Source of the DNA: Fidelibacterota bacterium
GTDB taxonomy: Bacteria > Fidelibacterota > UBA8477 > JABMPR01
NCBI GenBank assembly: GCA_018673925.1
Contig: JABHBL010000004.1
Coordinates: 38,524-102,523, forward strand
Reading direction: 5' to 3'
DNA length: 64,000 nucleotides
Shown here: positions 2,246 to 10,888 of the stretch, in pieces
Layout of the letters: every line of letters begins with the position of its first letter
Numbering within the stretch: position 1 is the stretch's first letter
Position numbers and translations under genes: made by a program
Notes under the pieces: generated by a model
What the model saw: the letters and a program-made list of their open reading frames with translations, nothing else
Told to the model about the DNA's origin: nothing
Databases searched by the model: none

Positions 2246-3175
2246 CTACTCGATAAAGTCGGCCTCGGCGAACTCCTCGATACTGAAATCATTATCTGGA
2301 TCAGCGTCCATTTGTAGGATGAATTCCACAACCTTCTTTTGTGCTCCCTCTACCTGCTTGCGAGAAACGGGTCCTTCTTTGGGTTCATACATGGCCTGCT
2401 TCTTCTGAGGCAGGTTCTCTATAACCCTGTCGCTTAATTCCTGATCTTGCCCCTTTAGTGCCAGAGCAATATCATCGATATCAAGACTGTTGAATACATC
2501 TCTGAGAATATTCTCCGGGAGCATGGGCACATTTTCAAAAGTGAAGTGATGTTTTTTCACTTCTTTGGCCAGCTCAGGATCTTCCTGGGAGAGATAATCA
2601 AGAAATTGTCGTTGTTCTTTAGCATCCATGGTTCCCAATAAACCTGCCATGGCTTTACCACCACCTTCTGAATATTCAGCTTGAGATGGAATTTGCTTGG
2701 CTTTTTCACGGAACTCTGAAGCAACTTCCAGGACAGCTTCCAGTGGAACGTCCTTAATCTTTCCAAGATCAACCATGGCTTCGGTGCGAATTTCAGTGGG
2801 AAGTCTCATGAGGAGACGACCTTGCATTTCTGTAGGAATTTGGGCCAGGAGTATGGAAATCGAACGAGTTGGTTCTGAGCGAATCAAATAGGCGAGATGA
2901 ACTTCAGTCATACCCTCAAGAAAAGCAAAGGGTTGGGAGGTTGCATCCTTGGCATCAGCTGCAAATTTCTTGGACATAAAGGAGAAATAGAATTCCTCGA
3001 GCACCATCTTCTTAAATTCAAAATGCACGCTTTTTATTTGGGGTACACGCTGGCGGACCGCAATGATTTCCTGATCGGTCAGATTTGGGAACAACTGTCC
3101 CGCAAGACGTGCTCCTAATATATCAAAAAGAATTGCGGCTTTATCAATACCGGCTAGTTTTTTTGTAGTAGCCAT
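2246..3175 (-). CDS. fliG: FliG-like rotor protein (divergent)
   Basis: N-terminal 'GIDKAAIL', GG linker 'EGGGKAMAGLL', MFXF-like 'HFTFE', 'IALALKG', and 'GPVSRKQVEGAQKKVV'. The EHPQ motif is replaced by EPTR. Confidence 0.85.
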   Translation of the reverse strand: MATTKKLAGIDKAAILFDILGARLAGQLFPNLTDQEIIAVRQRVPQIKSVHFEFKKMVLEEFYFSFMSKKFAADAKDATSQPFAFLEGMTEVHLAYLIRSEPTRSISILLAQIPTEMQGRLLMRLPTEIRTEAMVDLGKIKDVPLEAVLEVASEFREKAKQIPSQAEYSEGGGKAMAGLLGTMDAKEQRQFLDYLSQEDPELAKEVKKHHFTFENVPMLPENILRDVFNSLDIDDIALALKGQDQELSDRVIENLPQKKQAMYEPKEGPVSRKQVEGAQKKVVEFILQMDADPDNDFSIEEFAEADFIE

Positions 3176-5061
3176 TATTTTTGCCCCTTCTTTTTCTTTT
3201 TACCATTCGATTTTTCTTCTTCCTCAGTTTCTTCTTCCTCTTCGGCTTCGCCAGTATCCTGTAGCCAGTCCTTCACAATACTGGAGGCTGAACCAGGCTT
3301 ACTTACAGCCAGGGAGACGACTGATTTTTTAATACTATCCACTTCATCCAGTAACTCTGGATCGATTTCCGGTTCAGGAATGAGATCTTCTTCAGGTTCT
3401 GCTTCAACTTCAGGAGTTGGTTCAGGCTCTACTGTTGCCTGGGTCATGTCCTGTGATGGAGGTAATTCTGGAGCCTGACGACGGCCACCCATGAGGGCAC
3501 CGATAATCACGGCTAAACCGACCAGTACAGCAGCACCAATAATGAAAAGCCACAGGAGATCATCTTCATCTTCTGGTAGCATGGTTGCCTGGAGTCTCTG
3601 GTTCTCAAGATCATCCATTTGCTGTTTGAGTTTATCTTCGCGATCTTTGATGGCAGATTTTTCAGCTTCTCTACGTTTTTGCTCAAGCTCAAGCTTCAGA
3701 CGCTGCTCTTCTTCAAGATCCACAGCGGACAGTTGATCTTTGAGATCATCAAGTTGTTCAGAGAGAAGAGCTAACCTTAAGGAGTCCTGACGTAAGCGAT
3801 CCTGAGCTTGTTCCTGCTGGGCTTCAAATAATTGTCGACGTTCTTCTGCTAAACGGCTTTCTTCCTGCTCGCGTAAATCTCTTAACTCATTCTCGCGCTG
3901 TTGAATCCGTTCTTCTTCTTGAAGACGCAGTTGTGCTAGTTCAGCTTCATGTTCTTTCTGTTTATCAGCCTCTTCCTGTCGGATGCGGGCCATTTCAACG
4001 TCACGAGCTTCCTTGTTAGCTTGATCAAGTTTCATCTGCTCTTGTTGAGCTTCTAAATCTTTAATGCGCTTATTCTCAGTTTCTTCTTTCTGACGGGCTT
4101 CAATTGCTGTCATTTTTTCAGCAATGGATTTCAGAAGAAGTTGTTCTGTGTCAGGCTTGTCATTGGTAGCGCCCTGAAAATCAGCTGTCATAACCTGTAA
4201 CTTGTCACCACGCTCTCTGTTGAAATGGGCTGCAACCATGGTTACAGTGCGAATATTTTCAATAATCTGAGGGGAGATGGGGTCTTCCAGGATAACGGTC
4301 AACTCCATTTTGTTTACGCGTAGGCTTGGACCACTAATACTGGCAACCGTATGACGGGACAATTTTGCATTACCACTTTCAGAATAGCTCACCAGATTCT
4401 GGTCTTCGGTGTTTTCTGTGACGCTTTGAATATCCTCTTCCAGGATGACTTCATTTTCTTCAAGTGAAAGACTTGCCTCAGCGGCAACCTCAGTTTGTGT
4501 GGTATCAGGAATCTCAGCTACTTCGTCAAGATCTTCAGCAGCAGCATAAACAACATCTTCATTGGTGTCTTCTTCTACAGGTACTTCTTCTTCGTATAAT
4601 TCAAAACCAGGTGATTGAATTCCAGGGAATCCAGGGATATCGGATGGTACATCAGTTTTAATAGGTCGCTTTTTGAGAATGGTCCGAGTCTTTTTTACAC
4701 TTGGATCATCTGCTTCTGTACTGGATGATTGAGCCATTCCAGGAGTTTTGTTAAGAGATTGTTTGAAAATTTCCTGCTCAGGACTGACTTTTCCTTTTTT
4801 GGATCCAGGTGCTTCATAAACAGTTGTATATTTTTGAGTTGGTGTTGCTTCCATGACAACATTTACGTTCACAATGAAATTCTCATGTCGCAGAATGCGA
4901 TAAACAGCATCACTTACTCTTTGATGAATGGTATTCTCCAGCAGAATCTTTTGGGAGAGCACCTCTTTATTGGTGTCCGGTAGTGCGAACACCTGAGAGA
5001 TCAACATCAGTGAGGTAATGATACCGCCTGTTATGATGTGTTTAAATGCTGGATACTTCAT
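3175..5061 (-). CDS. FliF-like ring protein (RBM3-only, long coiled-coil stalk, single C-terminal TM)
   Basis: Split RBM3-like segments 'LENTIHQRVSDAVYRILRHENFIVNVNV' and 'VNKMELTVIL...AAHFNRERGDKLQV'. TM 'LLWLFIIGAAVLVGLAVIIGALMGG'. FliF-type tail 'KPGSASSIVKDWL'. Stop overlaps the fliG start (TAATG). Confidence 0.7.
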   Translation of the reverse strand: MKYPAFKHIITGGIITSLMLISQVFALPDTNKEVLSQKILLENTIHQRVSDAVYRILRHENFIVNVNVVMEATPTQKYTTVYEAPGSKKGKVSPEQEIFKQSLNKTPGMAQSSSTEADDPSVKKTRTILKKRPIKTDVPSDIPGFPGIQSPGFELYEEEVPVEEDTNEDVVYAAAEDLDEVAEIPDTTQTEVAAEASLSLEENEVILEEDIQSVTENTEDQNLVSYSESGNAKLSRHTVASISGPSLRVNKMELTVILEDPISPQIIENIRTVTMVAAHFNRERGDKLQVMTADFQGATNDKPDTEQLLLKSIAEKMTAIEARQKEETENKRIKDLEAQQEQMKLDQANKEARDVEMARIRQEEADKQKEHEAELAQLRLQEEERIQQRENELRDLREQEESRLAEERRQLFEAQQEQAQDRLRQDSLRLALLSEQLDDLKDQLSAVDLEEEQRLKLELEQKRREAEKSAIKDREDKLKQQMDDLENQRLQATMLPEDEDDLLWLFIIGAAVLVGLAVIIGALMGGRRQAPELPPSQDMTQATVEPEPTPEVEAEPEEDLIPEPEIDPELLDEVDSIKKSVVSLAVSKPGSASSIVKDWLQDTGEAEEEEETEEEEKSNGKKKKKGQK

Positions 5062-5093
5062 ATGCTTCTCCTCGTTTCTAGCGCCGGTCTCTA

Positions 5094-9799: not shown

Positions 9800-10784
9800 G
9801 CTCTTCCCAGTCGAGTGAATAACTATAACCTATAAATGAGCCAAATGAATTGGGTACGTAAAGTTCAAATTCGCCACTGGCACCCGGGAAAAGAGAAGTG
9901 TCAGTATTAACACCGCTGGAGAAAACGTGGTGGGAGCCTTTGACAAAAGCCGTTAGCTCTCGTGTATCACCACTCCAGTTAATTCTGAAAAGAAAATTTA
10001 CTTTGACAAAGTCTGCGCGACGACCGCCAATATTTTTAACCACGCCAGACAGGATGGTATTTCCTGTGCGATCCTTGCGTTCTTTGATGCTGCCGGATAA
10101 AACGACGTTACCAGTGTATTTGCTATCGCGTGTATCACCTTTAACATCCTGGGTTCCAGCCATGTTGGCACGATCACCATTAATGTTCATGGGAGCACCA
10201 CCGCGTGCAGCGTCTCCAGCCGCAACAGCAGGAGCATCATCAGATGTAGGAATATTATCTACAATACGTAGGACTTGATCACGAGAAACGGATAGTACAC
10301 CGATAAGGGTTTTAACCTGGATGTTATCTTTGTCCTGATCAATGACATCACCAAACAGCTTGGTGCCATTCTCTAAATGTACTTCTTTACTATATATGCT
10401 TAATGGGTTTGTCCAGACTTCACTCTGAGTTTGAAGCTCAGTCAATTTCTTTTTTACATATTTTAATTCGGCAGCCAGACGTTTGACTTCATAGTTGATT
10501 TCGCTAGTAACAAAATCAGCAGACTCGCCAGAATCCGGTTTTTTATTTCTTAGTTGATCAAGATTATAGATCAGATTATCAGCTTTCTCGCCACTCTGCC
10601 AGGCAGATTCATCTGTGCCCTGAGCATCTACACCTGCAGATTCAGCACGATTCGTTGAATCACCTCGTGCTGACGATTTGTCCCAGGATTCTTCTTCCGG
10701 TTTAGATTTTCCACCGAACATTGAGCACTGTACAAATGTCAGGGTTAGAGCCAATAACAGTACTTGTAAGCTGTATCGCTTCAT
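9789..10784 (-). CDS. Lipoprotein with short coiled coil, small beta domain and C-terminal Ig/FxLYD-like domain
   Basis: Start MKRYSLQ (10784) after a purine-rich RBS; lipobox-like 'TFVQ-C'; 'SGVVKNIGGRRADFVKVNF'. Overlaps the next gene by 11 nt. Confidence 0.65.
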   Translation of the reverse strand: MKRYSLQVLLLALTLTFVQCSMFGGKSKPEEESWDKSSARGDSTNRAESAGVDAQGTDESAWQSGEKADNLIYNLDQLRNKKPDSGESADFVTSEINYEVKRLAAELKYVKKKLTELQTQSEVWTNPLSIYSKEVHLENGTKLFGDVIDQDKDNIQVKTLIGVLSVSRDQVLRIVDNIPTSDDAPAVAAGDAARGGAPMNINGDRANMAGTQDVKGDTRDSKYTGNVVLSGSIKERKDRTGNTILSGVVKNIGGRRADFVKVNFLFRINWSGDTRELTAFVKGSHHVFSSGVNTDTSLFPGASGEFELYVPNSFGSFIGYSYSLDWEEHDI

Positions 10785-10859
10785 ACGCAGCCTCTTCCGA
10801 CTTAACATCGCTTCCAATTTTATGCGGAGTGTAACCTGTCCTGCACCGCATTCGTAAAG

Positions 10860-10888
10860 AATTTAGGGAGCTTCTAAAATCTTGTCAA
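10860..10888 (-). promoter_or_regulatory. Sigma70-type promoter of the motor-like operon
   Basis: Minus strand TTGACA (10888-10883), exactly 17 nt spacer, TAAATT (10865-10860), about 75 nt upstream of the first ATG. Confidence 0.65.

Follow-up and report, generated by a model that had tools for sequence, protein, structure and literature searches.

A conserved Fidelibacterota operon combining a flagellar-type stator, a FliF-like protein and FliG with outer-membrane partners looks like an undescribed rotary envelope machine

Genes, products and signals of the operon

We analyzed a stretch of 64,000 nucleotides (nt), here called the window, from contig JABHBL010000004.1 of a metagenome-assembled genome (MAG; GCA_018673925.1) of the phylum Fidelibacterota (Marinimicrobia/SAR406). 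The window harbors an operon of eight co-oriented open reading frames (ORFs) on the minus strand (10817..2246), arranged in the order g1-g2-g3-g4-motA-motB-g7-fliG. Their products have 342, 325, 290, 455, 265, 212, 628, and 309 amino acids, respectively, and the intergenic gaps, from g1 to fliG, are -11, 2, 34, 18, -4, 32, and -1 nt. As described below, the analysis confirmed that the operon brings together a stator, a FliF-like protein and FliG with tetratricopeptide repeat (TPR) proteins and an outer-membrane barrel, and the whole looks like an undescribed rotary envelope machine.

The stator pair is encoded by motA (6526..5729, minus strand) and motB (5732..5094, minus strand). MotA is a stator A subunit of the flagellar, PomA/MotP-like type; it matched MotA_ExbB with an E value of 3.9e-27 and scored 176.5 bits against PomA and 175.2 bits against MotP, but only 24.3 bits against TolQ. 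Against the PDB, it matched C. sporogenes MotA (8ucs/6ysf) at E=1e-40 over its full length, and TolQ at 5e-4. MotB, the B subunit, exhibits a transmembrane Asp, a plug (E=4.2e-17) and an OmpA-like peptidoglycan-binding domain (E=1.1e-18; both Pfam). Among homologues collected from 78 FliG loci, MotA residues R93, K94, E100, P157, and P213 were each kept in 68/68 sequences and MotB D25 in 69/69, with R93, K94, and E100 aligning with the charged pair of flagellar MotA. These conserved columns, together with those of FliG given below, are taken by us, partly from the alignments, to be E. coli MotA R90/E98/P173/P222, MotB D32, and the charged ridge of FliG. As seen, the feature that marks a stator of the MotAB/PomAB type, a transmembrane Asp along with charged residues facing FliG, is present.

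Two side observations concern stator genes. In the window genome, motA has 71 to 74% and motB 64 to 68% nucleotide identity to same-genus relatives (L003, L016, L004, and others), while the flanks range from 93% down to about 70%; the exception is locus L078, to which motA (83%) and motB (85%) have identities above those of the flanks of L078 itself (71 to 82%). From these identities, the stator pair (5094-6526) seems to have been swapped in by recombination, leaving a mosaic operon. We also observed a second flagellar-type MotA in the same genome (contig C63, 48683-50897; locus L083), of 275 amino acids and 173 bits against MotP, which is 36% identical to the operon MotA and keeps the same charged residues. 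It is followed by two MotB-like OmpA proteins and then by PorU (678 bits), the sortase of the type IX secretion system (T9SS). The genome is the one in which no flagellum genes were found, and its MotA-MotB-MotB set may provide the same rotor with a second stator or belong to another machine.

The gene g7 (5061..3175, minus strand) gave by Pfam only a subthreshold YscJ_FliF_C match (22.3 bits; cut-off, 23.8) and no match to PF01514, which covers RBM1/RBM2. A profile made from an alignment of 30 orthologues (A1) matched FliF chains of the PDB (12dr_A, E=0.0012; 8z5s_AA, 0.0036; 9yh6, 0.0067), with the matched parts lying in RBM3 and, weakly, in the C-terminal peptide that binds FliG. The AlphaFold model has a mean predicted local distance difference test score (pLDDT) of 65, with 81 to 94 in the ring domain and above 90 in a long helix. 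Its fold runs from an alpha-beta-beta unit through a disordered acidic insert to a beta-beta-alpha-beta unit, the helix (308-493), a membrane helix (501-525), and two short C-terminal helices. When this model was searched with Foldseek, all 12 hits with E<=0.001 were FliF MS-ring structures, among them 8z5v_A (2.3e-5) and the "RBM3/collar" entry 6sd1_A (1.1e-4), and the next hit had an E value of 0.075. At the level of profile and modeled fold, g7 is thus confirmed as a cut-down FliF, made of an RBM3/collar ring domain, the long periplasmic helix, a single membrane helix, and a tail that resembles the FliG-binding one.

The N-terminal hydrophobic stretch of g7 is short in many orthologues of alignment A1 and ends in Ala-x-Ala-like sites, suggesting a signal peptide, rather than an N-terminal anchor, that is probably cleaved and stands in place of the first transmembrane helix (TM1) of FliF; if so, the ring domain would end up at the distal tip of the helix. 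The periplasmic helix has about 185 residues in the window and varies in length across the phylum. The insert that interrupts the ring domain is acidic, disordered, about 140 residues long, and contains an invariant P-G-F motif, while the cytoplasmic part consists of a Pro-rich stretch, a FliF-C-like motif, and a poly-Lys end kept in most orthologues.

The last gene (3175..2246, minus strand) encodes a FliG paralogue with N, M, and C domains (Pfam; FliG_N, 1.4e-13; FliG_M, 9.9e-9; FliG_C, 3.2e-24), which scored 132 bits against TIGR00207 (cut-off, 226.7). K258 and K259 are kept in 71/73 homologues and are R in the other 2, E264 and the G172 of the Gly-Gly linker are kept in 73/73, and the signature LPQKKQAMYEP of the torque helix is invariant. 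The FliM-binding EHPQ motif (EHPQR) is lost, E being kept in 71/73 homologues and H, P, and Q not being conserved. Compared with the canonical FliG of a same-genus genome (G048), the operon FliG has 23% identity and a shorter N-M linker. FliG and the RBM3 domain of FliF are ring-forming rotor parts, and a complex of FliG residues 1 to 95 with g7 residues 556 to 612 was predicted from custom alignments. The prediction gave "weak support," with a score of 0.46 versus 0.01 for the best control, a contact agreement of at least 84%, and a partner pLDDT of at least 63. The mark used is reached by 58/80 solved complexes and 2/110 mismatches, and the band with scores of <=0.60 contains only 7 of the 80 solved complexes and both mismatches.

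Upstream of the stator lie four genes for envelope proteins. The first, g1 (10817..9789, minus strand; the start may be an ATG 33 nt further downstream), encodes a secreted protein to which no Pfam family could be assigned in Pfam and NCBIfam scans; it comprises a coiled-coil helix, a small beta domain that weakly matches Lepto_7_Nterm, and a conserved beta domain at the C terminus. In the Atlas, only Fidelibacterota clusters contain it. A Cys directly after the signal peptide occurs in the window's clade only (alignment A3 of g1). As a side observation, the g1 of most other members of the phylum has one more beta domain at its N terminus, CarboxypepD_reg-like by eye, which is missing in the window's clade. 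The second, g2 (9799..8822, minus strand), encodes a lipoprotein (LMAC lipobox in the translation) that combines a coiled coil with a CpoB/YbgF-like TPR domain, and its paralogue g3 (8819..7947, minus strand) a secreted coiled-coil protein with the same type of TPR domain and a plain signal peptide. Against the YbgF/CpoB model TIGR02795 (NCBIfam; cut-off, 90.1 bits), g2 and g3 scored 80.3 and 67.4 bits, and g2 also matched TPR_6 and YfiO (Pfam). Queries with g2 and g3 matched a single ORF in distant relatives, and the two are a clade-specific duplication of one CpoB-like gene. Finally, g4 (7912..6545, minus strand) encodes a protein with a signal peptide, an outer-membrane beta-barrel, a long helix, and a C-terminal TPR domain, the last also found by Pfam. 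Its model (pLDDT, 67.4) shows about 12 long strands (46-271), a 75-residue helix (303-377), and the TPR (381-454). In a Foldseek search against the PDB, it hit FapF (5o68_J, E=9.6e-7), then OmpG, NanC, and autotransporter barrels, and its C terminus hit TPR designs.

A sigma-70-like promoter candidate, TTGACA-17-TAAATT, with 10/12 consensus matches, lies upstream of g1 (10888..10860, minus strand). Downstream of fliG, a G+C-rich hairpin of 16 pairs (~2202..2166) followed by UUUUU was found by folding (~2202..2157, minus strand); the minimum free energy of 2135-2255 is -52.6 kcal/mol versus -38.9 +/- 4.1 kcal/mol in shuffles (z = -3.3), and a consensus scan gave no terminator-like site between 2135 and 2255. 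The hairpin is likely a terminator common to the operon and the convergent upp gene. The flanks are made of housekeeping genes (LptD-like, uracil phosphoribosyltransferase, NUDIX, methyltransferase, single-stranded DNA-binding protein, DivIVA, and YggS-like). Among the genes near the operon are one for an LptD_2-family outer-membrane protein (1-1356) and the DivIVA gene (13221-13826).

A first-pass annotation of this DNA had described eight co-oriented genes with short gaps or overlaps, set among housekeeping flanks; both statements agree with the gaps (-11 to +34 nt) and with the families of the neighboring genes. Its naming of a FliF-like protein is borne out by the profile (E=0.0012 to 0.0067) and by the fold (12/12 Foldseek hits at E<=0.001), and that of a barrel in g4 by model and Foldseek. 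It had also bounded the operon by a promoter and a hairpin; the hairpin holds by folding (z = -3.3), whereas the promoter site is present but such sites are not enriched in the region (21 versus 16.4 +/- 4.8 in shuffles). Its reading of g1 as a lipoprotein fits the Cys after the signal peptide, yet only within the window's clade.

Distribution of the operon and of flagellar genes

The 78 loci with FliG relatives, identified by scanning public genome contigs, are all from Marinimicrobia/Neomarinimicrobiota/Fidelibacterota records or are placed there by likeness. The order g1, g4, motA, motB, g7, fliG is kept in 55/56 loci for which 6.7 kb or more of DNA precedes fliG, and motA-motB-g7-fliG in 66/66 loci with at least 3.4 kb upstream. 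A CpoB-like gene was seen by tblastn in 48/55 full loci, distant relatives having one and not two. The first-pass annotation had made its reading depend on a conserved linkage of the upstream genes with motAB-g7-fliG, and such linkage is what the 55/56 loci exhibit. Some operon-bearing records are titled "uncultured bacterium." As a side observation, four loci (L005, L007, L010, and L015) contain near-identical copies of the operon (72 to 95% FliG identity) under the title "uncultured Lentisphaeria bacterium," probably a taxonomic mislabel. In the Atlas, one g4-like cluster is labeled Margulisiibacteriota (0.97) and YaiO barrel/TPR clusters reach 0.87, which we treat as leads only.

The window genome has 3.41 Mb in 113 contigs, with 90.0% completeness and 0.38% contamination. 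It yielded one FliG_C match, that of the operon, and, within this 90% complete assembly, 0 matches each to FHIPEP (FlhA), FliP, Flagellin_N, Flg_bb_rod, YscJ_FliF, and FliMN_C. As controls, these models matched 4 of 14 known genomes each, namely, E. coli, B. subtilis, Caulobacter, and Thermotoga. The statement that the operon stands without flagellar genes, first made for the window, therefore extends to the whole genome for the six families searched. The same-genus genome G048 presents the other situation. On one contig (C16), it encodes FliF (PF01514, 191 bits), FliG (FliG_C, 140 bits), FliI, FlgE, MotA, and MotB, together with FliM, FliP, FlhB, FliA, and FlhA, and on another (C109), it has all eight operon genes in order. 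Since this genome has a canonical cluster with its own fliF, fliG, and motAB in addition to the operon on another contig, the operon is separate and paralogous, and its readings as the ordinary flagellar motor and as a relic both fail. The annotation had named a flagellar gene set lacking its own rotor and stator genes as the finding that would make this the ordinary motor, and the flagellar cluster of G048 has its own FliF, FliG, MotA, and MotB.

To place these genes across the phylum, we used a sample of 301 species genomes (180 of them high quality) from 104 genera, in which families and genera are labeled f and g. The g1 profile, used as the operon marker, was found in 209/301 genomes, 134/180 high-quality genomes, 88/104 genera, and 22/22 genomes of the window's own genus. 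FliG_C was matched in 227/301 genomes (151/180 high quality) and FlhA in 69/301 (45/180 high quality; 7/22 in the own genus). Thus, neither the phylum nor the genus is aflagellate throughout, and the operon represents a paralogous second motor that is not confined to flagellum-free lineages. By family, the marker and FlhA were found in 25/25 versus 0/25 genomes of f15, 14/15 versus 0/15 of f7, and 41/42 versus 3/42 of f19; in f25, both were found in 10/10. Neither the marker nor FliG was found in family f11 (0/30) or genus g10 (0/22). A genome in a single contig (G029) contains the marker and one FliG_C match and gave no FlhA match. The FliG_C matches form two score classes, of about 130 to 150 bits and about 72 to 105 bits, most FlhA-positive genomes have at least two such matches, and no internal stops were reported in the FliG_C matches listed.

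The operon stretch was also found in 20 metatranscriptome runs from 17 studies, 19 of which contain half of the sampled words or more. Contigs of the four runs examined, from four studies, cover the operon in every case, and the pieces listed show no mismatched letter. Their depths over the operon are 12 to 21, 27 to 55, 70 to 225, and 22 to 201 (where covered), versus 0 to 8.5 over 10936-11600. Since carry-over of DNA should give a flat profile across this boundary, the drop in depth favors transcription. The contigs of the four runs stop at or below 10841 and the depth falls upstream, which is a hint of a promoter only. Bins without cover (X10, 2848-3521; X1, 10936-11272; X2, 11273-11600) have no meaning by themselves, and loose ends seen in single contigs (X10, 10841 and 2224, adapter-like; X6, 10715) do not define transcript ends.

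A proposed rotary machine and its alternatives

Taken together, these data make it likely that the operon encodes a non-flagellar, ion-driven rotary motor. In the arrangement that we propose, MotA/MotB units of the PomA/MotP-like type would be anchored to peptidoglycan through the OmpA-like domain of MotB and would push a ring of the paralogous FliG. This ring would sit on the cytoplasmic tails of g7, whose helices would carry the RBM3 ring towards the outer membrane. Torque might thereby cross the periplasm to its likely contacts, namely, g4 with its barrel, coiled coil, and TPR, g1, and the CpoB-like g2 and g3. No FliM/FliN switch was found in the window genome, suggesting that rotation would probably be unidirectional. 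As for the output, our best guess is mechanical work at the outer membrane; the motor might, for instance, gate or power transport through the g4 barrel complex, or move it. The assembly of a ring, its rotation, its contact with g1 to g4, and the output are what we infer from the anatomy of the operon, a reading adopted since co-occurrence gave no function. The first-pass annotation had proposed a repurposed stator and rotor unit; sequence, structure prediction, comparative genomics, and RNA libraries support that proposal, with the drive of g1 to g4 inferred.

Several points weigh against this reading. Rotation and ring formation are predictions from sequence and modeled structure, the putative coupling of the motor to g1 to g4 is drawn only from synteny, and the co-occurrence tests with PorU and TolB pointed to no function. 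The scores of MotA, MotB, and FliG all lie below the NCBIfam flagellar equivalog cut-offs, indicating divergent members. The torque helix of FliG falls 3 residues short of the canonical length and has a different charge spacing, so that the interface may work differently. The predicted contact of the FliG N domain with the g7 tail reached just "weak support" and concerns families with solved FliF-C/FliG-N structures; its pass may therefore reflect likeness. By tblastn, no CpoB-like gene was seen in 7/55 full loci. In the closed genome G301 (CP070787.1; loci L060 and L087), g1-TPR-g4 lies about 0.5 Mb from motAB-g7-fliG, and g4 appears broken, being matched to residue 361 only, with a 66-residue C-terminal remnant preceding motAB-g7-fliG; this split results either from a rearrangement through g4 or from a faulty assembly. 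Finally, the window genome is a 90% complete MAG, and the RNA evidence consists of contigs, which are unable to prove transcription or to set transcript ends.

The alternative that survives best, although we regard it as unlikely, is a non-rotary transducer or scaffold, in which MotAB would pull on or switch a trans-envelope complex of the g7 helix, the CpoB-like proteins, and g4, as TolQRA and ExbBD-TonB do. Its output would be tethering or stabilization of the outer membrane or energized transport. Several features of the products fit such a device: g2 and g3 have TPR domains most similar to YbgF/CpoB of Tol-Pal (80.3 and 67.4 bits), g7 has a long, charged, TolA-like periplasmic helix, and MotB carries a Pal-like OmpA domain. 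Furthermore, the operon is kept in small genomes of planktonic size (1.4 to 1.9 Mb), no TolB was found above the cut-off in the window genome, and TolB (E<=1e-40) was found in only 20/301 genomes of the phylum sample. However, TolB was not found in operon-free lineages either (g10, 0/22; f28, 0/5; f29, 0/5; f13, 0/9), and the CpoB-like gene was not seen in 7/55 loci. The stator, moreover, is of the flagellar type rather than of the TolQ/ExbB type, FliG and RBM3 are ring-forming rotor parts, and the residues of the torque interface are invariant.

An accessory or alternative rotor of a true flagellum, comparable to the second FliG of spirochaetes, would function only in the company of flagellar genes and be on its way out where flagella are missing; it would explain that part of the phylum is flagellated, that FlhA occurs in 7/22 genomes of the own genus, and that most FlhA-positive genomes have at least two FliG_C matches. 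We consider this very improbable, given that the operon marker (209/301) is far from matched by FlhA (69/301), with whole families having the operon without FlhA (f15 and f7, with f19 close to it at 3/42). Besides, the ORFs used are undamaged, the key residues are conserved in 68 to 73 homologues, the FliM-binding EHPQ motif is lost, and the partners, an outer-membrane barrel and TPR proteins, are non-flagellar. That the operon is what remains, in decay, of a flagellum since lost, or that it arose from gaps or contamination in the MAG, might be suspected from a genome 90% complete in 113 contigs, flagellated relatives in the genus, and scores under the flagellar equivalog cut-offs, but this reading is largely refuted and hardly credible, as the same gene order recurs in 55/56 loci from MAGs and single-cell genomes of many studies, the single-contig G029 has the marker and FliG without FlhA, no stops were reported in the listed FliG_C matches, catalytic and interface residues are invariant, metatranscriptome contigs of 4/4 studies examined cover the operon, and MAG contamination is 0.38%.

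Returning to the rotary motor, a bolder version of it, to which we give an even chance, is that the operon encodes a free-standing, envelope-spanning rotary organelle, in which a FliG ring on a cut-down FliF would be spun by flagellar-type stators and would, through the long periplasmic helices, pass torque to an outer-membrane barrel/TPR complex; this would make it the first instance in which the flagellar rotor serves outside a flagellum. That the module split off before, or independently of, the union of the rotor with type III export is quite unlikely in our view, but if true, it would offer living evidence that a rotor-stator core can exist and be useful alone.

In the published literature searched, we found no description of a non-flagellar FliG/FliF-MotAB system, in line with the statement of the first-pass annotation that no system of this composition was known to it. 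In a study on MotAB evolution, flagellar and generic clades are treated and no FliG-coupled non-flagellar case is given (PMC12505986). Elsewhere, rotor proteins without filaments are noted for 11% of the non-motile species, and the question is raised of whether these proteins serve some other purpose (PMC12199754). The first cultured member of the phylum is described as non-motile (PMC11652737). Surveys of MAGs take fliG and motAB as markers of motility; one of them used fliG, fliM, and fliNY (PMC10359470).

If the machine works as proposed, the torque core of the flagellum (stator, FliG, and FliF ring domain) would be a module able to work without export apparatus, rod, or filament, which bears on the debate over how the flagellum was assembled in evolution. 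It would also answer the printed question on rotor proteins without filaments (PMC12199754), and it is a candidate for a new output of ion-driven envelope motors, next to the flagellum, Tol, Ton, Gld, Agl, and Zor. Marinimicrobia/SAR406 is an uncultured phylum abundant in the ocean; about 70% of its species genomes in the sample contain the marker of the operon, and the operon is seen in marine metatranscriptomes. For MAG surveys, fliG and motAB alone are no sign of a flagellum in the Marinimicrobia phylum.

Comparison with known systems

With the flagellar motor, the operon shares a stator of the PomA/MotP type, which has the transmembrane Asp, the charged cytoplasmic residues, the plug, and the domain that binds peptidoglycan. 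It also shares a FliG with all three domains (N, M, and C) and the Gly-Gly linker, and a FliF-like protein with the RBM3/collar and a C-terminal FliG-binding-like peptide. It differs in that RBM1/RBM2, FliM, and FliN were not found, nor were an export gate, ATPase, rod, hook, or filament. In addition, about 185 residues of g7 form a periplasmic helix, a signal peptide, probably cleaved, would replace TM1, the operon FliG has no EHPQ motif and a shortened torque helix, and the partners encoded in the operon are an outer-membrane barrel/TPR protein, g1, and CpoB-like proteins. Spirochaetes have a divergent extra FliG (FliG1/FliG2) beside the canonical one in their flagellated members. That second FliG acts in flagellated cells, whereas the operon FliG has its own stator, a FliF-like partner, and non-flagellar neighbors and persists without flagellar genes.

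Tol-Pal is alike in that CpoB-like proteins are encoded beside a motor of the MotA/TolQ family, and in its Pal-like OmpA domain and TolA-like helix; it has no counterpart of FliG and of the FliF ring domain. The features reminiscent of Tol-Pal fall below their cut-offs (TolQ, 24.3 versus 403 bits; YbgF, 80.3 and 67.4 versus 90.1 bits), and the best TolB match in the window genome scored 111 bits against a cut-off of 343. Most of the Marinimicrobia searched seem to be without a classical Tol-Pal, the 20 TolB-positive genomes out of 301 (E<=1e-40) being mostly, with 11, in f9, a family that itself bears the operon (25/30). A replacement of Tol-Pal by the operon was considered and rejected, since the operon-free lineages are also without TolB and no complementary pattern emerged. 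Zorya was likewise discarded; in the eight proteins, no ZorA, ZorC, ZorD, or ZorE match was found, and only generic ZorB/MotB models matched MotB.

In the Agl-Glt and Agl-Nfs machines of Myxococcus, a motor of the MotAB family works with TPR, coiled-coil, and outer-membrane barrel proteins at the cell surface. AglRQS, however, is of the TolQR kind and has neither FliG nor FliF, and the only match to models of Glt proteins was GltC (E=0.0043; 15.8 bits versus a cut-off of 450). The model of the g4 N-terminal domain, of moderate model confidence, is closest to FapF-type channels of 12 strands (E=9.6e-7; template modeling score of 0.49 on the target). In FapF, too, a barrel is joined to a periplasmic coiled coil; in g4, the order of the domains is reversed, a TPR is added, and no fap operon accompanies it.

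The motor of the T9SS was weighed as well. PorU is present in the window genome (678 bits) and in 263/301 genomes of the phylum, and its counts set against those of the g1 marker are 22/22 versus 0/22 in g10, 5/5 versus 0/5 in f28, 5/5 versus 0/5 in f29, and 8/9 versus 1/9 in f13. As PorU is common in operon-free lineages, this distribution gives no support to a link between the operon and the T9SS and argues against one. The GldL and GldM models gave no match in the window genome, with controls matched in 0/14 genomes, so that their sensitivity is unproven. In GldLM/PorLM of Bacteroidota, an ion-driven unit in the inner membrane turns a shaft that spans the periplasm and acts on lipoprotein and TPR parts at the outer membrane. 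The operon resembles this system in the outline of its proposed working, in belonging to the same FCB superphylum, and in the presence of PorU in the window genome, and it differs from it in having a rotor derived from FliG and FliF, with no homology seen to GldL or GldM by the models above.

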